Shown: positions 5,186 to 24,101, numbered from the stretch's first letter. The stretch is DNA of 32,000 nt from Geotalea uraniireducens Rf4 (GCF_000016745.1 NC_009483.1:4470001-4502000); one strand, 5' to 3'. Numbers and translations are program-made. Notes: generated by a model not told the origin, from the sequence alone.

Positions 5186-5210
5186 CAGTCAACTTAAACA
5201 TAAACAGATA

Positions 5211-5481: not shown

Positions 5482-5508
5482 ACAAATAAACTATCCCTCG
5501 CAGAAGCG

Positions 5509-5604
5509 CTCACTCCTCACTCCTCACTCCTCACTCCTCACTCCTCACTCCTCACTCCTCACTCCTCACTCCTCACTCCTCACTCCTCACTTCTCACTTC
5601 TCAC
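5509..5604 (-). repeat. tandem heptamer array, 13-14 units (plus strand CTCACTC x11, CTCACTT x2; minus strand GGAGTGA)
   Basis: Perfect period-7 run. The stop codon and last 6 codons of the glycosyltransferase at 5587..6804 lie inside it. Confidence 0.95.
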
Positions 5605-7740: not shown

Positions 7741-8754
7741 TTATGTTTTTCGAGTCGATACTGCCGATCGATCAAATTGCTTGCTTAATGGTTGGCCGAA
7801 TTCTTTCACACGCATTACAGTAACGCCATCCGCTACCGGCCTGGATTTCCTGAATCGCGGTGAAATTAATCCTCTGATCATACCCGCACCATAGGCAAGG
7901 TGCAAGGCAGGAAAGACGCATAGCAATCGCGGTACAAGGTTGACCGCACCTGCGTTCAATGCCTCGAAAATTGAGCAGCAGAGTATTGTTATTGCATAGC
8001 ATAAAATGGGGATAACGTAAACAGATGTGATAAAAAGCGGTAATAAACAAAGATAAATAAGAAACAGAGACGGAATCAGGGTAATGTACTTAATTTCGCC
8101 GCTAATGTACGTCTGTTCAGCCCGTCCTCTCCCGTAGCCGAACATTTGCTTGAGGAAAGCCATAAACGTCGGTCGCTGACTCCGATGGATCGCCAAATCA
8201 GGATCATGTATAAGCAGAAGGCCTGCCTTCCTGATCCTTTCCATCAGTTCATTTTCTTCATTTGGATAGAGGCGTTCATCAAGTCCGCCGAATTCATGAA
8301 ATATATCTTTACGAAAGCTCAAGTTACATAGGATCAGCTCGTTATCGGCAGTAGCTCTTGCTTTTCCTGACTTGCGGTAGCGATTGCGCACGCCACCGCC
8401 GCCAAAAACAGATGCCAATGCCAGACCAATGGCCTTCTGCAGGGCGGCATCTTCGACGGGCGTCAAGGACGGCCCTCCGACAGCTGCAACGACTGGGTCC
8501 GCGTAATGCGGCAGGAGGCGTTTCAGGAACTGTGGAGAGACGCGGGAGTCGTCGTCGAGGAAATATAAAATATCTCCTCCTGCCTGCAAAGCGGCCTGGT
8601 TTCGCTGACAGCTCGGCTGCCTTCCATACGCGATAAGGAACTCGATCAGGTCGGATGGATAGTCAACGGCTGACAACGCCTCAAGCGCCTTCACCGGTCC
8701 GCCCGGCTTGACCGGAATTATTATGGATATTTTTCTGGCTGCCATTGGACTCAC
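7741..8754 (-). CDS. GT2-family glycosyltransferase with C-terminal membrane segments
   Basis: ISIIIPVKPGG...YFLDDDSRV, then hydrophobic helices (ITLIPSLFLIYLCLLPLFITSVYVIPILCYAITILC). Start is GTG 8754 or ATG 8745. Confidence 0.7.
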   Translation of the reverse strand: MSPMAARKISIIIPVKPGGPVKALEALSAVDYPSDLIEFLIAYGRQPSCQRNQAALQAGGDILYFLDDDSRVSPQFLKRLLPHYADPVVAAVGGPSLTPVEDAALQKAIGLALASVFGGGGVRNRYRKSGKARATADNELILCNLSFRKDIFHEFGGLDERLYPNEENELMERIRKAGLLLIHDPDLAIHRSQRPTFMAFLKQMFGYGRGRAEQTYISGEIKYITLIPSLFLIYLCLLPLFITSVYVIPILCYAITILCCSIFEALNAGAVNLVPRLLCVFPALHLAYGAGMIRGLISPRFRKSRPVADGVTVMRVKEFGQPLSKQFDRSAVSTRKT

Positions 8755-8840: not shown

Positions 8841-11057
8841 TTAGAAGAACTTCTTCAGATTTGCCTCAAACCTCTTTTCAATCCTATTATTACCAGAGCC
8901 GCTTTGATCGCCGTAACTATAGTCTATGGTAGCTTGCATCTTCTGGAAATTAAAACCGATAGTGCCGTTATAGACCAGCTGTTCGTTATGTTGCGGCTGG
9001 TCAATGAGAGAATATCTTATCCTCGCTGCAAGATATACCCTGCTCAACGGATAGTATCTGGCGCCCAGGGTAAGACTGCGGGTCAACCTGTTATCGTTAT
9101 TACCGGCATTGAGTTTGCTATACTCCAGCGTTTCATTTAGTTCCAGTATCCTTCGCGCGATGCCCGATACCTGATAGAAATAGTAATTGGCATTTTGCTT
9201 TAACTCCGCGCTGTTTGTTTTGACACCTGCAAAGTCACTAGAATGGCGAAAGTTGTAGCGAATCAATGCATCCATGTAACGGTTTGGGGTATAGGTTGCA
9301 CTACCATCTATACTGAATTGCGAACTATTGGTGCTTTCGGTGTCTGTCGTTGTGTAGTTCGCATTCAATCTGACCATTAAAGACTTAAGTTGATAATCCA
9401 GGTTGGTCCCGTATTTGTTGGAAAAAATGCTTTCCCTGTTTTCCGCAACAATGGCTTCATTCTCATATATGAGGCCGAAACGCAACCTCGCTACAGGTTC
9501 CCAATCCGCTCTGGCTGTCGTCAAATAACGGCTGTAACTGTTTGACGGCAGCTGAATATTCCCCAATGTCGTAATGCCGCTGTTCCCACCGGAAACTGAT
9601 GGAGCAACAAAGTTCGTTCCAGTGCCGGTGGCAATCGTAACAGCTTCAATAAGTTCGGCCCTGAATGCGCTGATTGGCGTATAAACCATTCTGGCAGAAA
9701 TATCATGGTTCAAAGAGGAATCTGAAGATGCATTATCAGAGGTGACCGATCGGACCTTGTAACTGGCAAAAAGACCCAATTGGGAGGAAAATCTCCGGGT
9801 GCTTGCGGTTTCGATTGATCCTTGAATCGACAGGTTATTGTCGGAACCGTTTTTATAATTATCAATCAGGAATTCCTGGGAAAGGGTAAAAGGGGCGCGC
9901 TTGAATGTATTGACACGCAGAGAAGCCAGGGTTTCCATATTGTCCAGATTTGAACCCGATTGCGCATACTTAACCTGCTGATTACTGAATCTGGCGCGCC
10001 AATCGGTTTCCGTGCCCCATACGCCGCTTATGTATAAAGGCAACCTGGTGTCGTACCTGAGACCGTTATTATCGATGATACGACTGAAGGTATTGAAGGT
10101 CCTTGCCTCCCATTTACTCCTTGATGCAATACCGAAAAGGTTCACATCGTAACTTTCTGTACTGTTGCTGCTGTCGGTACGTTTGGTATACGAACCATCA
10201 GCCGAAATCTGTATCCAGTTGGAAAAATGCACCCATTTTCTTTGCATGGACTGATCCACGGTTCCTATAAGAAACTGGTATTCATCAAAGTCTTGCTCTT
10301 TATTGATATAGTCTTTGTAGCGTGTAGACCTGAACTGCACCCAGTTGTCCTTCTTGTTCAAGCTGGCAATCGCCAGCTTTTTCAGTCGATTATTTACTGG
10401 GGTGATGCTTTTGAGGTCACGGTTGATCTCGTCGCTGTAATCCAACACGATCATCGGTAAACTATTAAAAACAGAGTTGTAGCGGTTGTTCATGGAGTTT
10501 TTCACGCCAAACTCCATGGTTGCACCGCTTCTTATGCGGGTACCGTCGATAATGGCGGTGTCCAGACCTGGATTAATCATCGCAACATCCGACGAAATCA
10601 AAGTCGTGCTATTAATAATGGATGAGTCTCTGAGGAAAACAGAGCGAGTCATGTCGCCGCTGAAGAGCTTCAAGCGAAACGGAAGTTCCTGCGGATCGAT
10701 GACTAACAAGCCATTATAGAGAATGTGTCCGGCTGTACTATTAAAGCTATCCTCTTCGCCCGGAGTTTTTATTTTGCCGTTCAGGGCAGACCATTCATAT
10801 CCCAACGAAAGCTTGTAGCCGCCGAGGCGCCCTTTGGCGAAGCGGTCGCTGATGTCATAGCGGAGAGAATATCGTTGCCTGAAGCTCGATCCATCGAGTT
10901 GCTTGACGCCGTTGTCTTCCCGGTCATAACTTACGTAGCCCAATTCCGCCTCACCGCTCAGGCCGGCAAGGGCCGCAGACGGCGAAACAGAAAACAAGGC
11001 CGCAAGAAAGAGCGCGATGCAAGCTATTATCTCTATATTCGGGCACTTTGTCGGCAT
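8841..11057 (-). CDS. large outer-membrane beta-barrel protein (738 aa), family not recognised
   Basis: Signal peptide ...SPSAALA/GL. Alternating aromatic/polar strand-like pattern throughout, with many Y/N/S/T/R residues. C-terminal ...ANLKKFF with a terminal Phe, typical of OMPs. Confidence 0.65.
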   Translation of the reverse strand: MPTKCPNIEIIACIALFLAALFSVSPSAALAGLSGEAELGYVSYDREDNGVKQLDGSSFRQRYSLRYDISDRFAKGRLGGYKLSLGYEWSALNGKIKTPGEEDSFNSTAGHILYNGLLVIDPQELPFRLKLFSGDMTRSVFLRDSSIINSTTLISSDVAMINPGLDTAIIDGTRIRSGATMEFGVKNSMNNRYNSVFNSLPMIVLDYSDEINRDLKSITPVNNRLKKLAIASLNKKDNWVQFRSTRYKDYINKEQDFDEYQFLIGTVDQSMQRKWVHFSNWIQISADGSYTKRTDSSNSTESYDVNLFGIASRSKWEARTFNTFSRIIDNNGLRYDTRLPLYISGVWGTETDWRARFSNQQVKYAQSGSNLDNMETLASLRVNTFKRAPFTLSQEFLIDNYKNGSDNNLSIQGSIETASTRRFSSQLGLFASYKVRSVTSDNASSDSSLNHDISARMVYTPISAFRAELIEAVTIATGTGTNFVAPSVSGGNSGITTLGNIQLPSNSYSRYLTTARADWEPVARLRFGLIYENEAIVAENRESIFSNKYGTNLDYQLKSLMVRLNANYTTTDTESTNSSQFSIDGSATYTPNRYMDALIRYNFRHSSDFAGVKTNSAELKQNANYYFYQVSGIARRILELNETLEYSKLNAGNNDNRLTRSLTLGARYYPLSRVYLAARIRYSLIDQPQHNEQLVYNGTIGFNFQKMQATIDYSYGDQSGSGNNRIEKRFEANLKKFF

Positions 11058-11321
11058 GGCACTCTTTGTTTTTTCCTCGGAGGATTATTCCACCCTAATT
11101 ATCAACAACACGGGGTCTCTAGAGTAGTATATTCTGCAAGTATCGTACCCTTTTGTACAATATTTTGACACGCCTTAATTGCATAACTGCGCGTTTTTTC
11201 ACAAGATTTATATTGCAGCCGACTAATCTTCGACAACCGGTCGTTTGCCAGCCGAATAGCTTAAAATTACCTGCCAAATAGCGCGCAACGATAGAACCTA
11301 TAAAAAGCATTTTAGCTACGA

Positions 11322-11443
11322 TTTTCACGAATTCACACGAATATACAAGCTCTCGCGATGCAGAAGGCACTCACCAGATCGGTGACTACTCAAGGCTTTA
11401 CAAGGGGTTAAAACATTCGTGTTTATTCGTGTCATTCGTGGCT
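11322..11443. promoter_or_regulatory. cluster of five ATTCGTG/CACGAAT heptads in inverted arrangement (2 + 3)
   Basis: CACGAATtcaCACGAAT (11326-11342), then about 70 nt, then ATTCGTGtttATTCGTGtcATTCGTG (11414-11440). The spacer contains the hairpin TCACC-n5-GGTGA. It lies in the 590-nt non-coding region upstream of the OMP gene. Confidence 0.4.
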
Positions 11444-11599
11444 AACTGCCGTTTTTGAACTGAACGGTCTACATCAGAAATGAAGACGACAGTCGCCCTG
11501 CAAAGCGTTTACCCTATCACATCAGAACCGTTATTTCAACATGAGAAGTTTGCAATGAATATACTGCGGACAAGTGGTAGACAAGAAAGGGTGATGGAC

Positions 11600-11630
11600 A
11601 AGAAAAGGGGATGGAAAACTCCATCCCCTT
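11600..11630 (-). terminator. rho-independent terminator of the tetrahaem cytochrome gene
   Basis: Minus strand reads GGGGATGG-agtttt-CCATCCCC-TTTTCTT, about 20 nt after the stop. Confidence 0.85.
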
Positions 11631-11651
11631 TCAACACAGCAGAACAATCGA

Positions 11652-12365
11652 TTACTTAATGTGGCATTTGAGGCAAAGACCACTGCCTGCAAGCGACCCT
11701 CTCAGGAAAGGTGCGATGGCGTTGTCATGCACGTTGTGGCAGGAGCTGCACTCCATGATGCCGTTCTGGAACGGCAGACCGGTGGCGGCAGTCGTATCTG
11801 CCAAGCTGCCGGGTCTTGCATTATTAACGGTTACCACAGCCTTGGCATAATCAATGTTGACCGGGTGGTCGTTGGTCAGGTCGGTTCCCAGATTTGCCGC
11901 ACCGGTAATTACAACACCAACACCAGCACTTTGCACGTTTGATTGAGCAGCACTTAAACCATACGGCTGATTGTTGAGGGTGGCGCCGCCCATGGTGGTT
12001 GCACCGTCATGGCAGGTCATGCAGAGGAGCGACGTGCTCTTCGTGCTGAACTGGCCCTTAACGGAGCCCTGGAACCAGCCATCCGCAACACTGCCTTCCA
12101 TCATGATACCTGATGTATAGGTGGCAAATGCAGTGTCAGCCGTTGCTCCCTTTCTGTTCCACAGTGCCTTGGTCTTGGCAGAGTTGTGCGGGGTGTGACA
12201 GTAAACGCAGACCTGTGTCGCACCGGAGTTTCCGGCGGAGTACCCGCCCGCTACGCCGTTTCCAAAGGACAGGTCATGCTTTGTGCCGACGATGCTGGCA
12301 GCGAAGGCGCTGCCTGCCATGACGACTGCTGATACCGCTACCAGAGTTGCTAATAACTTTTTCAT
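11652..12365 (-). CDS. omcE: secreted tetrahaem c-type cytochrome, OmcE-like
   Basis: Start moved to MKKLLATLVAVSAVVMAGSAFA (AGGAGGAG SD). Four CXXCH motifs (CVYCH, CMTCH, CSSCH, CLKCH). The KHDLS...CVYCHTPHNS motif is typical of Geobacter outer-surface cytochromes. Size and position downstream of ppcA-resB-ccsA-2 cytochromes-NHL match my recollection of the G. sulfurreducens GSU0612-GSU0618 (ppcA...omcE) locus. The symbol is tentative. Confidence 0.6.
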   Translation of the reverse strand: MKKLLATLVAVSAVVMAGSAFAASIVGTKHDLSFGNGVAGGYSAGNSGATQVCVYCHTPHNSAKTKALWNRKGATADTAFATYTSGIMMEGSVADGWFQGSVKGQFSTKSTSLLCMTCHDGATTMGGATLNNQPYGLSAAQSNVQSAGVGVVITGAANLGTDLTNDHPVNIDYAKAVVTVNNARPGSLADTTAATGLPFQNGIMECSSCHNVHDNAIAPFLRGSLAGSGLCLKCHIK

Positions 12366-12451
12366 CTCTTTACTCCTCCTCTTTCTTGGTTGTTTGTGCT
12401 GCAAGGATTGTTTCCCCAGACACAATTAGTAATCGTATTGAACATTACACT

Positions 12452-12467
12452 AGCAATTCCCGTGCCA
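12452..12467 (-). promoter_or_regulatory. sigma-54 promoter TGGCACGGGAATTGCT
   Basis: Minus strand matches the consensus TGGCACG-N4-TTGCW at every conserved position. It lies 87-102 nt upstream of the ATG at 12365. Confidence 0.7.
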
Positions 12468-12589
12468 CAATCCTTACGCACGTTAACCAACCAATTTCAT
12501 TACAGTATTGTTTATTTACGCTACATACCAACCGGTCATTTCGCCAGCCCACCGATTAACGCAGGCTAATTGACAGTCATTTCACGGCG

Positions 12590-13672
12590 CTATTCCTTCG
12601 ATGCTGCACCCGTCTCAACGGGGTGATTTTTGAGGTAACGCTCATCCATGTACTGAAACATCTGGAAGCGGTAATTCATCTGGTCGACCACGTAGATGGT
12701 GTTGTTCTTGTCGATGAATATCCCCATGGGAAGGAGGAAGCCGCCGGGGGCAATTTTCTGCTCAGAGGTAAACGCTCCACCCACCGTCAGGAGATACTCC
12801 CCCTTGGGAGAAAAGATCGAGAAGGTGTTCCCCTTGCCGTCAACCGCGTAGATATGGTCCTCCGTATCGCGGGCAATACCCTTTATCATCTGGAATTCAC
12901 CGGGATTGTCGCCGCGCGTGCCGAACTTGCGGATGAACTTCCCTGTCGGGTCAAAGAGCTGGACGCGCGTATTAAGAGAATCCGCCACAACAATGGTGCC
13001 GTCCTTCAGGATCGTGGCCCAGGCGGGGACGTTGAACTCCCCTTCCTCCCCTCCACGCTTGCCGAAGGAAAAGAGCTGTTTGCCGGCAAGGTCGATGACC
13101 TCGATTTTATGTCCCTGGGAATCACAGACGATTATCCTTTTCCGCTCCTTGTCGATGGCAATGCCGATCGGCCGCGTGACAAATGCGGCCAGATCGATGT
13201 TGCCCACGGGCTTTTCATCCTTGTTGAAGATAAAGATCTTTTTGGCGTCTGCATCCGCAACATAGATATTGCCGGCCACGTCAATGTCGATCCCCATCGG
13301 CTCCTGAAAAAGCTGCTCCAGATTCTTGCCGAATATATGCACCTTGTTGTTTTTCAGGTCATAGACGACTATTGCATGATTCAACGGGTCACAGACGTAG
13401 ACCAGCCCTTCTCCATCGGCGGCAATACCGCTGGGGCGGTTGAAGGCGATCGGGTCGTCCTTGCCGAAAACGCCTTCGAAAAAGAGCTGCGATCCCGTCT
13501 TCGGCAGGTCGTGCTGGCTGCGATAGGCGCCCAGCCACTCGATTTTCGGGTCATCCGGCAGCGGCGGCCAGTAGAATCTGTGTTTCATCGGGGGAGTGCC
13601 GGCGCATCCCGCCAATAATCCAACCATGATGAGCATCGCGACAATCTTTGTACGCCAACAGAATTCTTTCAT
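12590..13672 (-). CDS. NHL-repeat beta-propeller lipoprotein
   Basis: Lipobox LLAGC. About six repeats of the NHL type (GEFNVPAWATILKDGTIVVADSLNTRVQLFD, GEFQMIKGIARDTEDHIYAVDGKGNTFSIF ...). Confidence 0.8.
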   Translation of the reverse strand: MKEFCWRTKIVAMLIMVGLLAGCAGTPPMKHRFYWPPLPDDPKIEWLGAYRSQHDLPKTGSQLFFEGVFGKDDPIAFNRPSGIAADGEGLVYVCDPLNHAIVVYDLKNNKVHIFGKNLEQLFQEPMGIDIDVAGNIYVADADAKKIFIFNKDEKPVGNIDLAAFVTRPIGIAIDKERKRIIVCDSQGHKIEVIDLAGKQLFSFGKRGGEEGEFNVPAWATILKDGTIVVADSLNTRVQLFDPTGKFIRKFGTRGDNPGEFQMIKGIARDTEDHIYAVDGKGNTFSIFSPKGEYLLTVGGAFTSEQKIAPGGFLLPMGIFIDKNNTIYVVDQMNYRFQMFQYMDERYLKNHPVETGAASKE

Positions 13673-13744
13673 AATTTCTCCTTTTTTACAGCATCAGTTA
13701 GATAATTGCACTGACATCAAAAGCTGTGAAAACTATCTTTTTTG

Positions 13745-13855
13745 CACCCTCCCCCAGCCCCTCCCATCGAAGGGAGGGGAGCTTTTATTCCCTCTCCCTT
13801 GGCGGACCCAAATTGCGGGCCTAAAGGAGAGGGCCAGGGAGAGGAGGGAATGTGT
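13745..13855. repeat. GC-rich nested hairpin element (CCCCTCCC-atcgaa-GGGAGGGG; ATTCCCTCTCCC...GGGAGAGGAGGGAAT)
   Basis: Inverted repeats read directly in the 225-nt spacer between the 8-haem cytochrome gene and the NHL gene. REP-like appearance. Confidence 0.5.
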
Positions 13856-13897
13856 CGGCCTTTTTATTTTCTGAAGAAGAGTAAGTGACGACCAACT

Positions 13898-14890
13898 TTA
13901 TTTATTATGACACATCTGGCAAAGCTGCATCCTGTCTTCGAGATTGTTCTGGAAAAAGTACCGCACATCGCCGCCGTGGGGGTTATGGCAAGATACGCAG
14001 GAAAGCTCCCGGCCGGAACCCGGCCTGGATGGATCCGGTTTGTCCTTGAGCGGATGTCCGGTGCCGTTGGAAGTCCGCACCACATGCGTGTCGACGGCGA
14101 TCGACTCATGGCAGGAAAGGCAGAGCGCATTGATCGGCTGGTGCAGTTGGGCCGGATAATTGCTGCTATGTGCATCGTGGCAGATTTCACACATGCCGGC
14201 TTCAACCGGGCCGTGCAGATACTTGCGCTTCTTGAATTCAGCCGCCTTGTCGGCATGGCAATCGTTGCACAACGCCGCGTCGCGCCGGGGAAGCGCATAT
14301 TTCGGTTTCCCCTGGAGACTGTGACAATAGGCGCAGGAGAAGGTGCCTACCGGTCCATGGACATAATTCAGGTTCGCAATCTTCTTGTGACAAGTATAAC
14401 AGGGGTTTTTCTGGTCGACACTGCCGTCGAGCTGGGCAGTCGTAGGGGTCATGTTATGGCAGGCACTGCAAAGCTTCTCGATTTCAGGAACATGAACCAC
14501 ATTGGGGCGGTATTCGGCAGGAACTGCGGCCGGGTCTCCCTTGAGATTGTAATAAATGTCGGTCGTCGCCGTCTCGATTTTTTTCTCGCCGCTGTAGCCT
14601 TCAACAACAATGTCGTTCTTTCCGGGATCCCAGACCGGCTGCAGAATGAGAAAATCCTGAAAAGCCTTCCTGTATTCCGGCGAGCTTATCAGCATGAGTT
14701 CGCTGGCCAGACCGTTGACGGTTATCCTGACTCCGGTGATTTCAGGGTTGTTCAATTTGAAAATAAGGTAGTCGGTACGTTTGACCCAACTCTTCTGCGC
14801 CGGATAAAGGAAGGTAATCGCCGCTTCGGCGGCAAAGGCCGTCAGGGCCACACTCAACGCTGCGATTGTTGCAAGACTCTTCCAGAACAT
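13898..14890 (-). CDS. octahaem c-type cytochrome (c7/c3-like repeats) with an N-terminal non-haem beta-rich domain
   Basis: Start at MFWKSLATIAALSVALTAFA (AGAGGAG SD). Eight CXXCH motifs. Recurrent HGPV..G.C..CH motif of c7-type domains. Confidence 0.85.
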   Translation of the reverse strand: MFWKSLATIAALSVALTAFAAEAAITFLYPAQKSWVKRTDYLIFKLNNPEITGVRITVNGLASELMLISSPEYRKAFQDFLILQPVWDPGKNDIVVEGYSGEKKIETATTDIYYNLKGDPAAVPAEYRPNVVHVPEIEKLCSACHNMTPTTAQLDGSVDQKNPCYTCHKKIANLNYVHGPVGTFSCAYCHSLQGKPKYALPRRDAALCNDCHADKAAEFKKRKYLHGPVEAGMCEICHDAHSSNYPAQLHQPINALCLSCHESIAVDTHVVRTSNGTGHPLKDKPDPSRPGSGRELSCVSCHNPHGGDVRYFFQNNLEDRMQLCQMCHNK

Positions 14891-14974
14891 AGTAACTCCT
14901 CTTGACGGCAACGAATGGGTGACCAACCGTGGACGGGTCACAGCCCGACGTTGAATAAACCCCGCTTGCTTCTA

Positions 14975-15970
14975 TTAGTCGCCGTATCCGGACCTGTTGT
15001 ATGTCCGGGGTTTATGGCAACCGACTATACATGTCCCGCCGGTTGAGGTTTTTTCGTAATTTATGGGTATTTCCCACCTGCCGAAGCCGGGTATTCTACC
15101 TTTGATGAGCTTTGCCTGGCTGGCAGCATGGGGATCGTGGCAGGTTTTGCACGAACGGCCCTTGCCGGACATGTTGACGTGAAGATAGTGCAGATTCCGA
15201 TCGCCATCACGGAAATTGGTAATGGTATCTGTCCGCCGGTCTGCGGCAAGTTCCCGGTTATGACAATTAAAACATAAGGAAAAATTATCGGCGTTGTAAG
15301 ACATGTAAAAGAATTCGGGGAAGTTGTTGCGCAACAGTTTACGATATTTTGAACCATGGGGCGCATGGCAAGCAACGCAGTCACCTTTTGCAACCGGCGC
15401 ATGAACCGATTTTCCCGACATCCCGGTACGATCATGACAGCTGAAACATAGGGCAGCGCCGCCTATTTTCAATAACATGCGGTTGTCGGACTGATGTGGA
15501 TCGTGACAAACAAGACAATTGCCGGCTACGACCGGCCCGTGACCGAACGTATGCCTGAACTTATCTTCGTGGCACGTAAGACAAAGGGCCGCGCCCCTGC
15601 CTTTCAGCAGCTTTGCGTCAGCAGATGCATGGGGACTGTGGCAGGCGATACAGTCTCCCGAAGCAACGGGGGCATGAACATGTTTTTTACCGGCCAATGA
15701 TTCGTGACACATGTAGCAGAGCTTTGACCCGACCTCGACAAGGGCGACAGAACCCTTTTCATCCGGATGCTGTCCACCCTTGAGAGGCTGGTGGCAGGAG
15801 ACGCACTCGCCGGCGCCGAATGGGGAATGAACGAATTGTTCTTTGCCGATGTCATTGTGACATGCCAGGCAGTTAAGAGTTTCTGCCCTGACGAAATCGG
15901 GACAAGTAAAGGATAAAGAAATGGTTGCAACAAGGGCAGCCGGGAGCAGAAACCTAAAGCTTACACACAT
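14975..15970 (-). CDS. undecahaem c-type cytochrome (10 CXXCH + 1 CX3CH)
   Basis: Signal peptide. CLACH, CVSCH, CYMCH, CIACH, CLTCH, CLVCH, CFSCH, CVACH, CFNCH, CKTCH, plus the C-terminal CIVGCH. Confidence 0.85.
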   Translation of the reverse strand: MCVSFRFLLPAALVATISLSFTCPDFVRAETLNCLACHNDIGKEQFVHSPFGAGECVSCHQPLKGGQHPDEKGSVALVEVGSKLCYMCHESLAGKKHVHAPVASGDCIACHSPHASADAKLLKGRGAALCLTCHEDKFRHTFGHGPVVAGNCLVCHDPHQSDNRMLLKIGGAALCFSCHDRTGMSGKSVHAPVAKGDCVACHAPHGSKYRKLLRNNFPEFFYMSYNADNFSLCFNCHNRELAADRRTDTITNFRDGDRNLHYLHVNMSGKGRSCKTCHDPHAASQAKLIKGRIPGFGRWEIPINYEKTSTGGTCIVGCHKPRTYNRSGYGD

Positions 15971-16067
15971 AGACCGATTCCATCGCCATTATTTAATGAA
16001 TGGATAAAAGATTGACCGGACTGTTCCCGTTGCGACCGTACAGAAAACCTTTCATTATCCACCGTGA

Positions 16068-16916
16068 TTACTTGCCGTAACTGTGCAGTCCCGACAAGAA
16101 GAGATTAACACCAAGGTAGCAGAATATGGTGGCAGCAAAGCCGACCACGGAAAGAATGGCCGCCCTTCTTCCGACCCAGCCCCTGGTGATGCGGGCATGA
16201 AGGAATGCAGCATAGACGAACCAGACGATCAACGACCAGGTTTCTTTCGGGTCCCAACTCCAATAGGTCCCCCAGGCATAATTGGCCCATGCGGCGCCGG
16301 TAACTATGCCGAGGGTCAAAAGCGGAAAGCCGATCATGATCGCTTTATAGTTGAGATCATCCAATACCTTGACGGAAGGGAACATGGAAATAATCCCGCC
16401 GGCCGGCGAGCCGGCGGAGGAATCTTCCTGCCTTTCCCGTATCAGATACATGATGGAAAGGCCACAGGCAACGGCAAAGGCCGCATAGCCGAGGAAGCAG
16501 GTTATCACGTGATATAACAACCAGTTACTCTGCAAAGCCGGAACCAACGGCTCTATGCCGCTATCGAGGCCGAGCTGCGCCCATGCCATCCCCAACAGGG
16601 CAAAAGGGACGACAAAGAAACCGACGGCACGGTATTTATACTTGAAGTCGAGAAGGAGAAAAATAAGAATAATGGTCCAGGAGAAAAAGACCACCGACTC
16701 GAAGAGGTTGGAGAGCGGCGCATGGCCACGTCCCAGGTCGTAAGACTCTTTCCAACGCAACGCGATGGCGGTAGTCTGGACCACAAACCCGAAAATTGCC
16801 GCAAGCGTGCCGGCAAAACCGACGGTCTTGTTCTTGCTGGCAAGGTAGGCCAGGAATATCACCGTTGAAGCCATGTATGAAATTGTCGTGACGTTAAACA
16901 GCATGGAACTGGACAT
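16068..16916 (-). CDS. ccsA: cytochrome c biogenesis System II protein CcsA/ResC
   Basis: Polytopic membrane protein with the WWD motif WGTYWSWDPKETW and conserved His residues. Confidence 0.9.
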   Translation of the reverse strand: MSSSMLFNVTTISYMASTVIFLAYLASKNKTVGFAGTLAAIFGFVVQTTAIALRWKESYDLGRGHAPLSNLFESVVFFSWTIILIFLLLDFKYKYRAVGFFVVPFALLGMAWAQLGLDSGIEPLVPALQSNWLLYHVITCFLGYAAFAVACGLSIMYLIRERQEDSSAGSPAGGIISMFPSVKVLDDLNYKAIMIGFPLLTLGIVTGAAWANYAWGTYWSWDPKETWSLIVWFVYAAFLHARITRGWVGRRAAILSVVGFAATIFCYLGVNLFLSGLHSYGK

Positions 16917-16988
16917 CGTTCTTTCCTCCGCAGTTATTGCAATTGGGGGTTTTTAAAGTTCTGTGGCCGGTCAAAATATCGATAGATA

Positions 16989-18350
16989 TCACTGCTTGCC
17001 AAGTTTTTCAGTAAGTTCGTCAAAGGCAAGTTCGAAACCTGCAGGATTCTTGCTGGCGGTGCCGCCAATTGTAACGCGTCCATTCGCAACCCGCAACCAA
17101 ACGCGTTTATGAGACATGAAAAATGCCATGCAGATGCCGACCACCATTAATGCGCAGCCGAGCCAGACCACCCATACCCCCGGGTCCTTAGCGACCTGGA
17201 GACCGGTAAAGAACTTCTCGTCCTTACCGTCAAAGGTGAAGATGAGATCGCTGCCGCGTTTTTCATCGAAATCACGGCAATTGGAGTTAAGCAGTACTAT
17301 TGCGTATTGCTTTTCGCCGTTTGGCCGGGTAATTTCCAGTTTTGCCCCTGGCCCCGGACAGCCGGGAAAGTCATTACCGACCTCCGGCGCCACACCGATG
17401 ATCTGCAGGAAGCTTCCGTCCGGCAGGGATACCCGTTCATCCTGGTGGGCGACTACCGGCACAGCCTGGCCGCCGTTTCTGTTTCTCACGGAGAAATGGT
17501 AAACGGCGTCACCTGCAGCACCGTACGAGGACTGGTAAAAGGTGATCCCCTTGTACGTCAGCGGATCATTGACGATGACCTTGACATTTTCGTAGCCGGG
17601 AACCGGCTTGCCATCCTGCAAGACGGTCAGGATGCTCTTGAACTCCTTGGGCGCGCCGGTGTCGTAAAATGCAACGGCAAACTTCTCGCACTTCACGGCA
17701 AAACCGAGATCTATGCTCTTGCCGGAGCGGCTCTCAACCGTATTTACGCTGGTCCCCTCAGCAATATTCACGTAGGCCTTATAGCCAAAAAACGAACCGA
17801 TGAGAGCGCCAATAAAGATGATAATGATACTCAGATGTACAACATATACCCCCAGACGGCAATAGGGGTTTTTCTGGGCAAAAAGGTGGTACTCGCCGTT
17901 CACCTCGGTAATCACCGGTTCGGCAAACTCACCCTTAAGAAACGCCGCCATTTTATCCTTGAGTGCCGCGGCCCCACCCGAAATCTTGAATTCACGGGTC
18001 AGTGACAGGGACCTTTCAAAACCTTCATCCATGATCAGGGTCGGCTCGGAGATTATCTTCCAGACCCGCGGCAGCCTCTTGATCGAACAAGCCACCAGGT
18101 TTACCGTCAACAGATAGAGAAGAAGGATAAACCACCAGGAATGGTACATATCGAAAAAGCCGAGCTTGTCGTACATTTGCAGCTTTACGGTGCTTATGCT
18201 CTGGATGTACTCTTGCGGAACCGGCGCCTGGGGGATGACGGTACCGATTATCGACGTCAAGGCAAGTCCGATGAGGAGGGCGATGGAAAGTTTAAGAGAG
18301 CAGAAAAAATCCCACAGCATTTGTGCAAATCCGCGTTTGTTTGTAGTCAA
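16989..18350 (-). CDS. resB: cytochrome c biogenesis System II protein ResB/CcsB
   Basis: 453 aa. N-terminal TM helices (FFCSLKLSIALLIGLALTSIIGTVIPQ), a large periplasmic domain and a C-terminal TM helix. TTG start with AGGAGA SD. Adjacent to ccsA. Confidence 0.85.
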   Translation of the reverse strand: MTTNKRGFAQMLWDFFCSLKLSIALLIGLALTSIIGTVIPQAPVPQEYIQSISTVKLQMYDKLGFFDMYHSWWFILLLYLLTVNLVACSIKRLPRVWKIISEPTLIMDEGFERSLSLTREFKISGGAAALKDKMAAFLKGEFAEPVITEVNGEYHLFAQKNPYCRLGVYVVHLSIIIIFIGALIGSFFGYKAYVNIAEGTSVNTVESRSGKSIDLGFAVKCEKFAVAFYDTGAPKEFKSILTVLQDGKPVPGYENVKVIVNDPLTYKGITFYQSSYGAAGDAVYHFSVRNRNGGQAVPVVAHQDERVSLPDGSFLQIIGVAPEVGNDFPGCPGPGAKLEITRPNGEKQYAIVLLNSNCRDFDEKRGSDLIFTFDGKDEKFFTGLQVAKDPGVWVVWLGCALMVVGICMAFFMSHKRVWLRVANGRVTIGGTASKNPAGFELAFDELTEKLGKQ

Positions 18351-18408
18351 GGCTGTCTCCTGAATGAAAGGTTTGACATAAGGAATGAAAATTCATTATC
18401 GACTGGGC

Positions 18409-18437
18409 AGTATAAACCAAATTATAAACAGCGGCAA
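18409..18437 (-). promoter_or_regulatory. candidate sigma-70 promoter TTGCCG-N17-TATACT for resB-ccsA-cytochromes
   Basis: Hexamers and spacing read on the minus strand. It lies between the ppcA terminator and the resB start. Confidence 0.3.
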
Positions 18438-18465
18438 AATAAAATTTATTAATTTGAAATCGGAT

Positions 18466-18502
18466 CAAGAAAAAGGGATAACAAGAAACCTGTTACCCCT
18501 TT
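18466..18502 (-). terminator. rho-independent terminator after ppcA
   Basis: Minus strand reads AGGGGTAACA-ggtttct-TGTTATCCCT-TTTTCTT, about 30 nt after the stop. Confidence 0.8.
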
Positions 18503-18532
18503 TTCAGTCCGAATGCGATGCTTCATCAGCAA

Positions 18533-18805
18533 TTACTTCTTGTGGCACTCTCCGCACTTGGTCGGGCCGGCCTTTTTCGTTTCGTGGCAGCCTTTGCAGA
18601 GCTTGTGAGCCGCATCCTTGCCGAAGCCTTCAATCTTGCCGGGAGCTTTCTCGTGACAGGCTTTGCAGTCCTTGAGAGCTTCCTGGTGCTTCTTGTGGTT
18701 GAAAGTTACGTTACCGTTCTTTGCAGGCAGGGTAATGGTATCAGCCGCCATGGCAGCTACTGCACAGGAAAGTGTCAATGCAACCGCAACAATAATCTTT
18801 TTCAT
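18533..18805 (-). CDS. ppcA: periplasmic triheme cytochrome c7 (PpcA family)
   Basis: 90 aa. Signal peptide, then ADTITLPAKNGNVTFNHKKHQEALKDCKACHEKAPGKIEGFGKDAAHKLCKGCHETKKAGPTKCGECHKK, near-collinear with G. sulfurreducens PpcA as I remember it. Three CXXCH motifs. Strong SD GAAGGAGG. Confidence 0.9.
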   Translation of the reverse strand: MKKIIVAVALTLSCAVAAMAADTITLPAKNGNVTFNHKKHQEALKDCKACHEKAPGKIEGFGKDAAHKLCKGCHETKKAGPTKCGECHKK

Positions 18806-18932: not shown

Positions 18933-19439
18933 TCAGCAGGCATTGCCGGCGTTCAATTGTTTATCCTTCTCGTCGACTTCCTGCGCCATCTGTGCGCGGT
19001 ATGACTTGAGCTTTGCCGCCAGACTGACGTCAGCAAGGGCCAGGATCTGCACCGCAAGAATAGCCGCGTTCTTGGCGCCTGCCCTGCCGATCGCCATAGT
19101 TGCCACCGGAATACCGCCGGGCATCTGTACCGTGGAATAAAGGGCATCAACGCCGTTTAGAGCGCCGCCGCCGATCGGCACGCCGATAACCGGCAAAGTC
19201 GTTTCGGCAGCTACAACCCCGGCCAGATGGGCCGCCATTCCGGCCCCGGCGATAACGACCTTTACGCCGCGATCTTCAGCTTCCGAAGCAAGCAAGCCAG
19301 TCCGGCGAGGTGAGCGGTGCGCAGAAGAAATGCGCATCTCAAAGGGGACGTCGAATTCCGTGAGGACCTTTGCCGCCTCTCCCATTACCGGGAGATCAGA
19401 GTCGCTGCCCATGACAATCAATACCTGTGGTGGGTTCAT
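18933..19439 (-). CDS. purE: N5-carboxyaminoimidazole ribonucleotide mutase
   Basis: VLIVMGSDSDLPVM...SAHRSP...IAGAGMAAHLAGVVAA...PVIGVP, the classic PurE motifs. Confidence 0.92.
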   Translation of the reverse strand: MNPPQVLIVMGSDSDLPVMGEAAKVLTEFDVPFEMRISSAHRSPRRTGLLASEAEDRGVKVVIAGAGMAAHLAGVVAAETTLPVIGVPIGGGALNGVDALYSTVQMPGGIPVATMAIGRAGAKNAAILAVQILALADVSLAAKLKSYRAQMAQEVDEKDKQLNAGNAC

Positions 19440-19494: not shown

Positions 19495-20766
19495 TTACCT
19501 GGCCAGGGCCTTCTTTCCAATGTCCTTCCGATAATGCGCCCCCCGCCACGAGATGAGAGAAACCCCCTGATATGCCCGGTCTATGGCCTCTTTCACGGTC
19601 GGGCCCAAAGCCGTGACACCCAGCACCCGGCCGCCATTGGTGACGAATTTGTCTTTATCGAGAGCCGTGCCGGCATGGAACACAAACAGATCCTGAATTT
19701 TTGCCGCATCGTCCAAGCCATGAATCTCATCACCCCTGGGATAATCCCCCGGATAACCCTCAGCTGCCATAACCACGCAGACCGCCGCTTTATCATGCCA
19801 CTCGATTTGCACCCTGCTGATATCTTTTTCGGCAACAGCCAACAAGATGGGGACAATATCGGATTTCATCCTCATCAGCAGAGGCTGACACTCCGGATCG
19901 CCGAAGCGGGCATTGAATTCGAGGGTCTTGACACTTTCGCCGTCGATCATCAGCCCGGCATAGAGCACACCCCGGTAAGGACGCCCTTCCGCCGCCATGC
20001 CGTCGACTGTACGGCGCATAACCTCCTGCATGGCCTTTTCATGGATGGCCGGGGTTACGACCGGGGCAGGTGAATACGCCCCCATCCCCCCCGTATTCGG
20101 TCCGGTATCACCATCATAAACAGCCTTGTGATCCTGGGCGCTGGCAAGGGGTATAATGTTTTTCCCATCGGTAAAGGCAAGAAACGAGGCCTCCTCCCCT
20201 TTGAGGAATTCCTCGATGACAACCCGGGAGCCGGCTGCACCGAATGAGTTGCCTGAAAGCATGTCGGTCACCGCTGCCACCGCCTCGTCTCGCGTCTGGG
20301 CGATGATGACCCCTTTCCCGGCCGCCAGACCATCCGCCTTGATGACGATCGGCACCCCTGTCCTGTCGATAAAGGCTATCGCCGGTTCGACCTCGGTAAA
20401 GACCTCATAGGCAGCAGTCGGCACGTTATATTTTCTCATCAGGTCCTTGGAAAACGCCTTGCTCGCCTCGATGATCGCGGCATTTTTTTGCGCTCCGAAT
20501 ACTTTAAGACCGTATTCTTCAAAAAGATCGACGATCCCCAGAGAAAGCGGCAATTCCGGTCCCACCACGGTGAGCGCTATATCCTCTTTTTTGGCAAAGG
20601 AGAGGAGCCCGGAGAGATCATCAACCTTGATGTCGACATTCTCCGCAATCGTGCCGATACCGGGATTTCCCGGTGCACAGTAAACCTTTTCCACAAGCGG
20701 AGATTGCGCTATCTTCCAGACGAGGGCATGCTCACGCCCGCCGCTGCCGATTACAAGAACTTTCAT
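19495..20766 (-). CDS. purD: phosphoribosylamine-glycine ligase
   Basis: MKVLVIGSGGREHALVWK...VIKADGLAAGKGV...GPNTGGMGAYSP... Confidence 0.95.
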   Translation of the reverse strand: MKVLVIGSGGREHALVWKIAQSPLVEKVYCAPGNPGIGTIAENVDIKVDDLSGLLSFAKKEDIALTVVGPELPLSLGIVDLFEEYGLKVFGAQKNAAIIEASKAFSKDLMRKYNVPTAAYEVFTEVEPAIAFIDRTGVPIVIKADGLAAGKGVIIAQTRDEAVAAVTDMLSGNSFGAAGSRVVIEEFLKGEEASFLAFTDGKNIIPLASAQDHKAVYDGDTGPNTGGMGAYSPAPVVTPAIHEKAMQEVMRRTVDGMAAEGRPYRGVLYAGLMIDGESVKTLEFNARFGDPECQPLLMRMKSDIVPILLAVAEKDISRVQIEWHDKAAVCVVMAAEGYPGDYPRGDEIHGLDDAAKIQDLFVFHAGTALDKDKFVTNGGRVLGVTALGPTVKEAIDRAYQGVSLISWRGAHYRKDIGKKALAR

Positions 20767-21122: not shown

Positions 21123-23984
21123 TTACATTATTACAGGATTGCCAGCAAGGGAGTTGTTAGTCTCATCGGACTCGGGGACTTGATTGGTGTAGTCCGCATA
21201 GGCGCCGATGTAATAGTTTCCGGGCGGTAGATTTGGCGGGACCGAGCGGGTTCCGGTAAGAACGACTTCACTGTTGCCAGGAATATTGGCCCAATTTGCG
21301 TCGATAAGATAATCACTGGTAGTTATGGCAGCGTCAGAGGAGATATAGATGGCGGTTGGAAAAGCGTAATTTCCGGCCACACCGTTACCGACATTTTTAA
21401 CAGTCACTGAATAGGTTACTTTGCCGTTCGCCACGGTGCCAGACACGGCGGTTACAATGAGGTCATTGTTGATATATGGCTGGTTGCCAGCAAGGGAGTT
21501 GTTAGTCTCATCGGACTCGGGGACTTGATTGGTGTAGTCCGCATAGGCGCCGATGTAATAGTTTCCGGGCGGTAGATTTGGCGGGACCGAGCGGGTTCCG
21601 GTAAGAACGACTTCACTGTTGCCAGGAATATTGGTCCAATTTGCGTCGATAAGATAATCACTGGTAGTTATGGCAGCGTCAGAGGAGATATAGATGGCGG
21701 TAGGAAAAGCGTAATTTCCGGCCACACCGTTACCGACATTTTTAACAGTCACTGAATAGGTTACTTTGCCGTTCGCCACGGTGCCAGACACGGCGGTTAC
21801 AATGAGGTCGTTGTTGATATATGGCTGGTTGCCAGCAAGGGAGTTGTTAGTCTCATCGGACTCGGGGACTTGATTGGTGTAGTCTGCATAGGCGCCGATG
21901 TAGTAGTTTCCTGGCGGTAGATTTGGCGGGACCGAGCGGGTTCCGGTAAGAATGACTTCGCTGTTGCCAGGAATATGGGCATAATTTGCGTCGATAAGAT
22001 AATCACTGGTAGTTATGGCAGCGTCAGAGGAGATATAGATGGCGGTAGGAAAAGCGTAATTTCCGGCCACACCGTTACCGACATTTTTAACAGTCACTGA
22101 ATAGGTTACTTTGCCGTTCGCCACGGTGCCAGACACGGCGGTTACAATGAGGTCGTTGTTGATATATGGCTGGTTGCCAGCAAGGGAGTTGTTAGTCTCA
22201 TCAAACTCTGGGACTTGATTGGTGTAGTCTGCATAGGCGCCGATGTAGTAGTTTCCTGGCGGTAGATTTGGCGGGACCGAGCGGGTTCCGGTAAGAATGA
22301 CTTCGCTGTTGCCAGGAATATGGGCATAATTTGCGTCGATAAGATAATCACTGGTAGTTATGGCAGCGTCAGAGGAGATATAGATGGCGGTAGGGAAAGC
22401 GTAATTTCCGGCAGCATTTATGCCTCGATTTTGTATCGTTACAGAATACGTCAGCTTCCCGCCGCTGACAGTACCTGAAACATTCTTCACCACCAAGTCG
22501 GGCTGTACGGAGGAGATTGTTATATTATTCCCCAGTTTGGTATTATTAGTTTCATCCCCTTCTACAACAAGATTTGTGTAATCAGCAATAGCCTTCAAAT
22601 AGTAATCGCCAGTCTTGCAAGCCGTTGGAATAATTACTGTGATGCTGCCGGTATCAGGTGTCTTCGGAGCAAGAGATGTGACGGTTCTTTCACCCAAATA
22701 GCAGCTCGTCCCTTTCAAATCGTCGAGATAAATCCCAATTTTGAAAGCAGTGGCTGAGTCAGTCCCTTTGTTGAATGCAGTGGTGGATATTGTAACAGAA
22801 TTACCGATCACCCCCGTTGCAGGACCGCTGACATCGGTGATTTCCAGATCAGTATACGATTCGTAAGCCAGGGTTACGGCATGGAGTACCGGAGTTGTCA
22901 TGTCGCTTGATGAAAGCTTTAATCGCAGTTCCGCAACATGAGCGTACTGGATATTCAAATCAATGCTCGTGGTTTTGGTTTGGATGCCGTTGACCACGGG
23001 TCCGTCGACCGTAGTTGCACCGGAGGTTGTGAGGTCGTACCATGTGTCGGCGCTGCCATCGGGTCCCAGGTACTGGGCACTTTCAAGGGAGGTCAAGTCT
23101 TGAGCGGTTCTGACCTGAAACTGGATTTTCTGACCAGTTGTAAGCTCGTCGTAGTTCCAGGAAAGATGCGCCTTGTCGAAAGGGGCGACCCCGGTGACCC
23201 GGAGCCCACTGAGCATGCTCACCACCGGCTCGATCTCCAGTGATTTCTCAACCTGGTTCGACGCCCCGTCAATGACCGACACGACATTGTTGAATTTGTT
23301 GGTCAGGTAGACCTTGTTGGTGGCCAAGTTATAGGATGCGGTGTAAGGGCCAGCAATCACCTGCACCGTTGCAATGACGGTATCACTGATCCCGTCGAGA
23401 ACGGAAACCGTCTGGTCGGTCATGTTGGCGATGTAGACCTTGTTGTTGGTCGGGTTGTAAAGAGCAGCATTGGCGCCATTGCCAACGGTCACGGTTGCAA
23501 TTACCGTATCAGTGACACAGTCGATGACCGACACCTTGTTGTCGTTGTAGTATCCCACATAGAGCTTGTTATTTACTGAATTGTAAACAGCTCCCGAAGG
23601 TTGCGCCGGTAATGGTATCGAAGGAAGCAACTCTTTCGTCGTTGCGTTAATGACGGCGACGGAGTTCCTTTCCGCCCCAATGGTATAGACTTTGTTGTTC
23701 GAAGTGTTATTGATGATCGTCGCAGTGCTCAACAAATCCTTCGGAATGCCGATTTTCACATCACCAGAAACTGTTGTGGTGTCAATGTTTACGCGCGTTG
23801 TAGGAGTGTTTGTCGTAGAAGCATTGTTTTCAAAATCTGGTTGAGTTGTCCATGTTACTGATGACATTGCTGCACACGCCGGTTGCGCAATACTGCCGGC
23901 TGCTACCGTTAGGCTGACAATTAGCAGGATAATTGTCAGTAGCTGTAACGGTAATTTTTTTAAATTTCCCCAATGATAACCCAT
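21123..23984 (-). CDS. secreted surface protein: YVTN beta-propeller + unknown beta-rich domain + five CARDB-like domains
   Basis: Start placed at MGYHWGNLKKLPLQLLTIILLIVSL... (AAGGAGGG SD; the track ORF starts 90 nt upstream). Signal peptide ...AQPACA. YVTN-type repeats (KVYIANMTDQTVSVLD etc.). C-terminal domains show the CARDB pattern DL.V..VSG...G....V.V.N.G......YIS.D...........G.YY..A.AD....V.E.DETNN. Confidence 0.8.
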   Translation of the reverse strand: MGYHWGNLKKLPLQLLTIILLIVSLTVAAGSIAQPACAAMSSVTWTTQPDFENNASTTNTPTTRVNIDTTTVSGDVKIGIPKDLLSTATIINNTSNNKVYTIGAERNSVAVINATTKELLPSIPLPAQPSGAVYNSVNNKLYVGYYNDNKVSVIDCVTDTVIATVTVGNGANAALYNPTNNKVYIANMTDQTVSVLDGISDTVIATVQVIAGPYTASYNLATNKVYLTNKFNNVVSVIDGASNQVEKSLEIEPVVSMLSGLRVTGVAPFDKAHLSWNYDELTTGQKIQFQVRTAQDLTSLESAQYLGPDGSADTWYDLTTSGATTVDGPVVNGIQTKTTSIDLNIQYAHVAELRLKLSSSDMTTPVLHAVTLAYESYTDLEITDVSGPATGVIGNSVTISTTAFNKGTDSATAFKIGIYLDDLKGTSCYLGERTVTSLAPKTPDTGSITVIIPTACKTGDYYLKAIADYTNLVVEGDETNNTKLGNNITISSVQPDLVVKNVSGTVSGGKLTYSVTIQNRGINAAGNYAFPTAIYISSDAAITTSDYLIDANYAHIPGNSEVILTGTRSVPPNLPPGNYYIGAYADYTNQVPEFDETNNSLAGNQPYINNDLIVTAVSGTVANGKVTYSVTVKNVGNGVAGNYAFPTAIYISSDAAITTSDYLIDANYAHIPGNSEVILTGTRSVPPNLPPGNYYIGAYADYTNQVPESDETNNSLAGNQPYINNDLIVTAVSGTVANGKVTYSVTVKNVGNGVAGNYAFPTAIYISSDAAITTSDYLIDANWTNIPGNSEVVLTGTRSVPPNLPPGNYYIGAYADYTNQVPESDETNNSLAGNQPYINNDLIVTAVSGTVANGKVTYSVTVKNVGNGVAGNYAFPTAIYISSDAAITTSDYLIDANWANIPGNSEVVLTGTRSVPPNLPPGNYYIGAYADYTNQVPESDETNNSLAGNPVIM
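21139..22518 (-). repeat. four tandem 345-bp (115-codon) repeats, nearly identical
   Basis: The same string TTGCCAGCAAGGGAGTTGTT recurs at 21139, 21484, 21829 and 22174, exactly 345 nt apart. Copies 1/2 and copies 3/4 form two sub-pairs that differ by only a handful of substitutions (WANIPG/WTNIPG versus YAHIPG). The 5'-most part of copy 4 diverges. Confidence 0.95.
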
Positions 23985-24073
23985 TTCAATAAACCCTCCT
24001 TTTTTGATTTGGACGCCGAGTATATCGGAATTATGGCGGCCGCTCTTTATTAGCGAGGGTTTATAACACACCA

Positions 24074-24101
24074 CATATTATTATGTACACATAATAATAT
24101 G
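24074..24101. promoter_or_regulatory. 28-bp AT-rich perfect palindrome CATATTATTATGT-AC-ACATAATAATATG
   Basis: Read directly, 90-117 nt upstream of the start of the CARDB-repeat gene. Candidate operator overlapping the promoter. Confidence 0.35.

Follow-up and report, generated by a model that had tools for sequence, protein, structure and literature searches.

In a stretch of 32,000 nucleotides from Geotalea uraniireducens Rf4 (GCF_000016745.1 NC_009483.1:4470001-4502000; referred to as the window), we analysed a gene cluster built around a homologue of OmcE, a tetrahaem cytochrome that polymerises into extracellular nanowires. Work on extracellular electron transfer has yet to settle how nanowire cytochromes cross the outer membrane, how they are assembled and how they are connected electrically to the periplasm. 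The locus in the window is the G. uraniireducens orthologue of the omcE nanowire locus of Geobacter sulfurreducens. An earlier note on this DNA had treated seven genes, from ppcA to omcE, as one functional unit. It was found that these seven genes are not one unit; the core consists of four genes, which code for an octahaem cytochrome, an NHL beta-propeller lipoprotein, OmcE and a predicted large outer-membrane beta-barrel. As a whole, the four genes are explained best, at somewhat better than even chances in our judgement, by a system in which the barrel would be the platform for OmcE filaments, the NHL lipoprotein would act in docking and the octahaem cytochrome would charge the filament.

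The omcE orthologue (11652-12365; like all genes of the cluster, on the minus strand) encodes a tetrahaem precursor of 237 residues with a Sec signal peptide, four CXXCH motifs and exactly eight histidines. The protein matched the OmcE filament subunit (PDB 7tfs_A) over residues 11-237 with E=3e-42, and the subunit of the D. soudanensis OmcE bundle (PDB 9yuq) with E=2e-24. Pairwise alignment with OmcE of G. sulfurreducens gave 44% identity along the entire protein (E=3e-54). It is also 100% identical to an annotated protein of G. uraniireducens. When 21 homologues from several phyla were aligned, the four haem motifs (CVYCH, CMTCH, CSSCH and CLKCH) were invariant, as were all 8 cysteines and 8 histidines. 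Beside the four CXXCH histidines, the invariant H30, H60, H167 and H213 are candidates for the distal ligands of the four bis-His haems, one of which, in OmcE-type subunits, receives its ligand from across the subunit interface. The same rule of ligand conservation has been stated for OmcE in a 2025 preprint (bioRxiv 10.1101/2025.10.22.684050). That preprint also relies on gene context, and in the window the NHL gene is located directly 5′ and the barrel gene directly 3′ of omcE. Both the homology to OmcE, as proposed in the earlier note, and the retention of the haem-ligand histidines, which it had named as a check, were borne out, and the sequence evidence that the protein belongs to the OmcE-type subunits is strong. 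An AlphaFold2 model computed from the 21 homologues without haems gave a predicted local distance difference test score (pLDDT) of 39, as expected for a haem-packed protein lacking its cofactors. Relative to the G. sulfurreducens protein, an established filament former, the OmcE encoded in the window, a predicted one, carries ~10 additional residues in a loop, and its C-terminal loop region is shorter.

All the seven genes listed in the earlier note, from ppcA through the tetrahaem cytochrome, were found in the region 11652-18805 by open reading frame (ORF), CXXCH and domain scans. Their order is the same as in the ppcA-omcE neighbourhood of G. sulfurreducens (GSU0612-0618), a match that the note had already named. 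The region should, however, be extended to 8841, so that it takes in the barrel gene that had been missed. To define the unit, gene contexts centred on ResB were compared with those centred on the barrel, and the absence of genes was judged at this site only. The loci of Geomonas nitrogeniifigens, Geoanaerobacter pelophilus and Geomesophilobacter sediminis (L082, L083 and L085) were found to carry purH-purD-purE-ppcA-resB-ccsB, a single cytochrome, two family 2 glycosyltransferases (GT2), one family 4 glycosyltransferase (GT4) and MarR, and to be without the octahaem, NHL, omcE and barrel genes. The remaining cytochrome is the orthologue of the 11-haem cytochrome of the window (320-337 bits, 10 CXXCH plus CxVGCH). 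Its gene abuts the first GT2 gene, which is the orthologue of that at 7741-8754 in the window.

The four missing genes occurred together in the window and in ten further loci (L081, L084, L086, L087, L001, L002, L004, L005, L046 and L056). They were also present in L088, from which the 11-haem cytochrome was absent. No partial version of the four-gene set was seen among the loci examined. The NHL gene was found in two copies in L004, L056 and L087, and as one copy inside the cluster of the window. Moreover, ppcA was missing from L084 and L087, both of which have the four genes. From this joint presence and absence we concluded that the co-inherited unit consists of the octahaem cytochrome, NHL (in one or two copies), omcE and barrel genes, and that the 11-haem cytochrome is a neighbour outside it. 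The core is placed between the purD-purE-ppcA-resB-ccsB backbone with the 11-haem gene, on one side, and a block of glycosylation genes on the other. In L088, the annotated minus-strand gene for a 349-residue protein (4447-5571; no Pfam match) was rejected as a miscall. It covers a plus-strand ORF with 8 CXXCH motifs that encodes the octahaem orthologue of this locus; the record thus appears to be mis-annotated.

The barrel gene (8841-11057) codes for a protein of 738 residues that has a signal peptide and ends in ...KKFF. This protein is the most likely component for export and anchoring, and it was not among the parts of the unit listed in the earlier note. No Pfam match was obtained for the protein even at E<=1, nor any NCBIfam match, and its profile had no match among PDB sequences. 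An AlphaFold2 model (33 homologues) had a mean pLDDT of 86.6 and a predicted template-modelling score (pTM) of 0.63, and was all-beta with ~34 strand elements. The protein is therefore predicted with confidence to be an outer-membrane barrel of ~34 strands. When the model was searched with Foldseek, the top match was MtrB (6r2q_B; E=3e-10, TM-score 0.26-0.29). Further matches were the 30-strand SlpA, with the highest TM-score (0.44), followed by LptD, the FimD/PapC ushers and TonB-dependent transporters. The protein did not group with the MtrB/PioB porins, as no match to that sequence family was found and as it has ~34 strand elements against 26. The family is small: a word-index search gave 63 clusters, and a search of 1.84 billion proteins with a hidden Markov model (HMM) gave 241 representatives, nearly all of 700-790 residues. 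Among the loci examined, every family member that could be placed adjoins an omcE gene. The barrel was 39% identical to its G. sulfurreducens counterpart. At 594 nt, the spacer that separates omcE from the barrel gene in the window is of unusual length; a search of it for traces of another NHL gene gave none.

The NHL gene (12590-13672) encodes a six-bladed beta-propeller lipoprotein. PF01436 was matched with 81 bits (cut-off 20), PDB entries of NHL domains were matched at about E=1e-48, and identity to the G. sulfurreducens neighbour was 47%. The lipobox, read from the sequence, is LLAG-C with an alanine at +2. The earlier note had called this an outer-leaflet-type lipoprotein. The NHL repeats and the lipobox were confirmed, whereas a facing to the outer leaflet is not readable from sequence.

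The octahaem cytochrome, a periplasmic protein, corresponds to an ORF at 13898-14941 with 8 CXXCH motifs. Its start is probably the ATG at 14893, since this gives a protein of 331 residues, as in the orthologues. The N-terminal ~130 residues (14447-14893) contain no haem motif and had no Pfam or PDB match; the lengths of the orthologues (~330 residues) suggest that this N-terminal domain is conserved. The neighbouring 11-haem cytochrome (14975-15970, also periplasmic and of 331 residues) has 10 CXXCH motifs and, in addition, one CIVGCH. As the orthologues retain the CxVGCH pattern, a count of 11 haems is reasonable. When compared with MtrA (PDB 6r2q_A), the 11-haem cytochrome gave E=1e-13 and the haem part of the octahaem cytochrome gave E=5e-7. 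Thus, the two large cytochromes resemble MtrA/DmsE, and the label 'poly-c7-like' used for them in the earlier note was dropped. Both fell below the cut-off of the MtrA/DmsE family TIGR03508, with 101.5 bits for the 11-haem and 67.2 bits for the octahaem protein against 192.2. It may be noted that the molecule name of chain A in PDB 6r2q reads 'Cystathionine beta-synthase', while the entry title and the 333-residue multihaem match indicate MtrA; filtering by name would therefore miss MtrA.

A sigma-54-type -24/-12 promoter element, TGGCACGGGAATTGCT (12452-12467, minus strand), matches the consensus TGGCAC-N5-TTGCW exactly and is situated 87 nt 5′ of the omcE start codon. It is the sole match without mismatch in the window. 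With up to 2 mismatches, a motif of this type was present once within 600 nt 5′ of omcE in 11 of the 11 other Desulfuromonadales loci tested, i.e., in 12/12 counting the window, against a background of 0.07 per 600 nt. Directly 3′ of the stop codon there is an intrinsic terminator (11597-11631, minus strand), with a 12-bp stem (11604-11615 / 11620-11631) followed by UUUUCUU. Its folding energy was -21.3 kcal/mol (z-score -3.5). This terminator was missed by a terminator scan tool, as its U-tract is partly paired in the stem, and was revealed by folding and an inverted-repeat search. A GC-rich hairpin with a U-tract was present 3′ of omcE in 8/8 orthologous loci (9/9 with the window). The promoter and terminator that the earlier note had assigned to the subunit gene therefore stand, and it is well supported by these conserved sequence signals that omcE is its own transcription unit, from an RpoN-type promoter to the terminator. 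The two signals offer a concrete handle on the control of subunit supply.

A weak sigma-54-like motif, GGGTACGATACTTGCA (11135-11150, minus strand; 2 mismatches), is found 78 nt 5′ of the start of the barrel gene. Weak motifs were seen 5′ of the barrel gene also in L004, L005 and L084, but not in the remaining loci, and GGGTACGATACTTGCA is proposed only tentatively as a promoter motif of the barrel gene. A 31-nt imperfect inverted repeat (11312-11445, minus strand; 81% complementary, with arms 72 nt apart) is present 160-300 nt 5′ of this weak motif, a layout that resembles an activator-binding site. An Rfam scan revealed no riboswitch near the omcE cluster. The sole match in the window was an unrelated thiamine pyrophosphate element (29674-29775, plus strand; 74.8 bits, cut-off 54.3), located just 5′ of the gene at 29857-31356 for a fused thiamine-phosphate synthase / phosphomethylpyrimidine kinase.

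The breadth of the arrangement was assessed in species-representative genomes, the neighbourhood counts being taken from the best 80 loci. At least 590 OmcE-like genes were found. In 67 of the best 80 loci, an NHL homologue was present on the same strand within 400 bp of the OmcE-like gene. Hence, the linkage of NHL and OmcE proposed in the earlier note extends beyond the G. uraniireducens genome. The phyla with such loci include Acidobacteriota, Nitrospirota, Calditrichota, Bacteroidota, Planctomycetota, Verrucomicrobiota, Gemmatimonadota and Pseudomonadota. An uncharacterised protein of 600-700 residues that ends in R-x-F is encoded in many of the clusters, and a single family unites thirty such proteins. 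When the ORFs of the 80 loci were searched iteratively with an HMM of the barrel, only its Desulfuromonadales relatives were recovered. The profile similarity between the two groups is partial and modest, and we do not claim homology of the barrel across phyla.

A recurrent module was observed outside Desulfuromonadales (L008-L080, e.g., L015, L047, L058 and L072). It has a 4-haem OmcE-like protein, an NHL protein, a 5-haem cytochrome, a barrel-like R-x-F protein of ~660 residues, a second NHL protein and a protein of ~560 residues that carries 11 haems and an OmcE-like N-terminus. This module was seen in Bacteroidota, Calditrichota, Planctomycetota, Verrucomicrobiota and Gammaproteobacteria.

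From the four-gene core and its signals, we infer the following sequence of events for OmcE. The protein would be exported by Sec, and its four haems would be attached by the general ResB/CcsB System II machinery. It would then be delivered to the barrel, which would be the platform for export across the outer membrane and for anchoring, in a porin- or usher-like role. Polymerisation would occur at the barrel, a spare histidine of one subunit ligating a haem of the next. The NHL lipoprotein may be an assembly or docking factor on the inner face of the outer membrane. The octahaem cytochrome, in a role like that of MtrA or OmaB, would relay electrons of the PpcA pool, either through the barrel or as far as it, to the filament base. 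With an RpoN-dependent promoter and a terminator of its own, omcE would be transcribed alone, so that the major subunit could be made in large excess over the machinery. The role of the barrel as a platform is favoured by the observation that it tracks omcE and not the glycosyltransferases, and by its signal peptide and C-terminal phenylalanine.

Several points weigh against this scheme. The roles given to the barrel, the NHL protein and the octahaem cytochrome in OmcE filaments are proposals read from sequences and a structural model. In the G. sulfurreducens strain gsu0616::kan, reduction of Fe(III) and U(VI) was not slowed but became slightly faster (PMC1829397); in this strain, which has OmcS, the orthologue of the octahaem cytochrome is disrupted, with a possible polar effect on GSU0617. 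Export of OmcS and OmcZ has been linked to the PilA-N/PilA-C machinery, which may also serve OmcE. The TM-scores of the barrel model to known barrels are low (0.26-0.44), and the estimated strand count was read off the DSSP string of this model, whose pTM is 0.63. The R-x-F families aligned to the barrel family in hhalign with 79-96% probability over 80-100 residues, a similarity that is weak and partial. Finally, no gene for an enhancer-binding protein (an activator) was found within the window.

A bolder form of the same scheme is that the barrel and the NHL protein are a filament-assembly platform of an undescribed kind, a 'cytochrome usher'. Folded, haem-loaded OmcE would be threaded through the barrel and polymerised there, with the octahaem cytochrome in or under the same barrel. 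Export, anchoring and charging would thus be combined in one machine, and diverged trios of propeller, cytochrome and barrel would be at work in more than 10 bacterial phyla. We regard this form as a tentative and rather doubtful proposal.

The strongest competing explanation is that the barrel together with the octahaem cytochrome, and perhaps with the NHL protein as well, makes up a porin-cytochrome conduit of the Mtr/Pcc type, which would do no more than pass electrons across the outer membrane to OmcE. In this case, OmcE would be exported and polymerised by other means, such as the PilA-N/PilA-C pseudopilus or a system like type II secretion. The charging step is common to this explanation and the platform scheme. 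MtrB being the best fold match of the barrel, and MtrA being matched by both large cytochromes, are in its favour. The pairing of an octahaem cytochrome with a porin also recalls OmaB-OmbB, and pilus-dependent export has been reported for OmcS and OmcZ. However, the ~34 predicted strands, against 26 in MtrB, are more than the sheath of one cytochrome needs, and among the loci examined the barrel family was found only beside omcE genes. In addition, the authors of the 2025 preprint argue that a porin-mounted filament fits the many filaments per cell (bioRxiv 10.1101/2025.10.22.684050). We consider a conduit alone to be unlikely.

The model of the earlier note was that all the seven genes act as one module dedicated to maturation and charging, in which the ResB/CcsA haem lyase would be private to the nanowire cytochromes. 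The genes concerned, apart from those already described, are ppcA (18533-18805), resB (16989-18350; PF05140, E=1e-110) and ccsB (16068-16916; TIGR03144, 310 bits, cut-off 188). The first codes for a ppcA-type trihaem cytochrome c7 of 90 residues with 3 CXXCH motifs, for which the equivalog NF043011 gave 150 bits (cut-off 120). The model agrees with the finding that in several Geobacteraceae the seven genes adjoin one another on one strand and keep their order. It agrees also with the 2009 genome paper on G. metallireducens, in which it was suggested that each of four ResB/ResC pairs may serve cytochromes encoded nearby (PMC2700814). On the other hand, ppcA-resB-ccsB and the 11-haem gene persist in the three genomes L082, L083 and L085, which are without the four-gene core at this site, and ppcA or the 11-haem gene is missing from loci that have the core (L084 and L087, and L088, respectively). 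The related Citrifermentans (formerly Geobacter) bemidjiensis has been reported to have no omcE homologue (PMC2996986).

The lyase itself is far more conserved than its supposed client, identity across genera being 65-70% for ResB and ~40% for OmcE and the barrel. In G. sulfurreducens, GSU0613-0614 (resB/ccsB) have been reported as essential by transposon sequencing (bioRxiv 10.1101/2022.08.12.503762), while omcE is dispensable, omcE mutants being viable. This essentiality holds although three other ResB/ResC pairs are present in that organism. Because resB/ccsB are kept where the core is missing and are reported to be essential, they are not private to OmcE; they are general, housekeeping System II machinery, which would mature OmcE among its clients. 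PpcA is a backbone neighbour too, and probably a general periplasmic electron donor. Consequently, of the synteny expected in the earlier note, the linkage of NHL and octahaem genes to omcE was upheld, while ppcA, resB/ccsB and the 11-haem gene are not tied to omcE. The seven-gene model is largely refuted by these comparative data, and we hold it to be highly improbable. The natural presence and absence variants narrow the candidate machinery to four genes, which make a short, testable set of deletions; the lyase and PpcA drop out as candidates, and so, probably, does the 11-haem cytochrome.

The barrel is followed by glycosyltransferase genes, two of GT2 (7741-8754 and 6773-7717) and one of GT4 (5587-6804), all identified by Pfam matches. 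Large barrels do export polysaccharides. One may suppose that the barrel, and perhaps the NHL protein, is the export porin of a downstream exopolysaccharide cluster, to which flippase, epimerase and methyltransferase genes are added in relatives, and that the adjacency to omcE is one of descent only. This is very improbable, since the glycosyltransferase block is intact in L082, L083 and L085 where the barrel is gone together with omcE, the barrel follows omcE in L084 and L087 without the same glycosyltransferase genes directly next to it, and the pairing of NHL and OmcE holds in phyla without the block. The persistence of the block in genomes without omcE also suggests that the glycosyltransferases are not strictly tied to OmcE.

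Some further features of the window were noted around the cluster. Upstream of ppcA are purE (18933-19439) and purD (19495-20766), both on the minus strand and identified by ORF and domain scans. Inserted between purH and purD is a gene for a 983-residue protein with five CARDB repeats (21123-24074, minus strand). In L081-L087, the same position was empty or held other inserts (TPR and GT2 in L084), and inserts were also seen between purD and purE (an STT3/AglB oligosaccharyltransferase in L086; a GT2 in L087). Beyond the glycosyltransferases, a plus-strand gene (3362-5185) codes for a 607-residue YVTN/YncE-type beta-propeller with an InlB B-repeat domain. Homologues of this protein were found beside omcE clusters in L001, L046, L088 (39% identity) and L089 (34%), and it may be the 'second propeller' of the 2025 preprint. 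A CysD-like protein with a PAPS_reduct domain and an adenosine 5′-phosphosulfate kinase (1416-3006, minus strand) adjoin the glycosyltransferase block. In the equivalent region of L089 there is a sulfotransferase; these three genes together give a hint of a sulfated glycan. At the far end of the glycosylation region (884-1255, minus strand) is a gene for a 123-residue member of the '23S rRNA intervening sequence protein' family (PF05635, E=1e-34).

NHL proteins beside outer-membrane cytochromes have been noted earlier in Desulfovibrio ferrophilus (PMC5815863) and Geoalkalibacter. In D. ferrophilus, NHL genes are adjacent to and co-expressed with genes for extracellular multihaem cytochromes, and the NHL proteins were proposed to stabilise an outer-membrane complex (PMC5815863). 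That system differs in having other cytochromes, with no OmcE-type filament shown, and, as far as known, in lacking the barrel family.

Like MtrCAB (PDB 6R2Q) and OmaB-OmbB-OmcB, the locus in the window combines genes for a multihaem cytochrome of the periplasm, a large barrel of the outer membrane and a cytochrome outside the cell. Compared with MtrCAB, the barrel is predicted to have ~34 strands against 26 and gave no MtrB/PioB Pfam match, the cytochromes stay below the TIGR03508 cut-off, the extracellular partner is a polymerising tetrahaem subunit that is not a lipoprotein, and an NHL lipoprotein is added. With the chaperone-usher pili (FimD/PapC), an inferred functional likeness exists: a filament of identical subunits would be mounted on a dedicated barrel, and the subunit gene would be expressed separately. 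In contrast to those pili, no usher plug, no N- or C-terminal usher domains and no chaperone of immunoglobulin fold were detected in the window system, and OmcE is joined by ligation of histidine to haem and not by donor-strand exchange.

The closest relative is the G. sulfurreducens locus, which extends from GSU0612 (ppcA) to GSU0618 (OmcE) and on to the hypothetical GSU0619. The order purH-purD-purE-ppcA-resB-ccsB, 11-haem, 8-haem, NHL, omcE, barrel, GT2, GT2, GT4 is shared. In G. sulfurreducens, but not in the window, the two GT2 genes are separated by a TPR gene. The window, in turn, has the CARDB protein between purH and purD and the longer spacer of 594 nt between omcE and the barrel gene.

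The omcE cluster and the idea of a porin-type assembly are already known from the 2025 preprint (bioRxiv 10.1101/2025.10.22.684050). There, the cluster was described across Desulfuromonadia as a purHDE-resB-ccsB backbone into which genes for multihaem cytochromes, one or more propeller lipoproteins, OmcE and a large beta-barrel are inserted, followed in freshwater genera by glycosylation genes. A porin-type mounting of OmcE was favoured in that work; for OmcS, a porin-like route is credited there to Shen et al. 2025. The gene order in the window agrees with the 'freshwater' pattern. The minimal cluster of the preprint has two propeller lipoproteins and two cytochromes, whereas in the window only one NHL gene is inside the cluster, and the 11-haem cytochrome and glycosyltransferase genes appear from our comparison not to be strictly tied to OmcE. 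To this picture the present analysis adds a core of four genes as delimited by natural deletions, the finding that the lyase, PpcA and the 11-haem cytochrome are outside it, an estimate of the size and fold of the barrel, and the conserved promoter and terminator of omcE.

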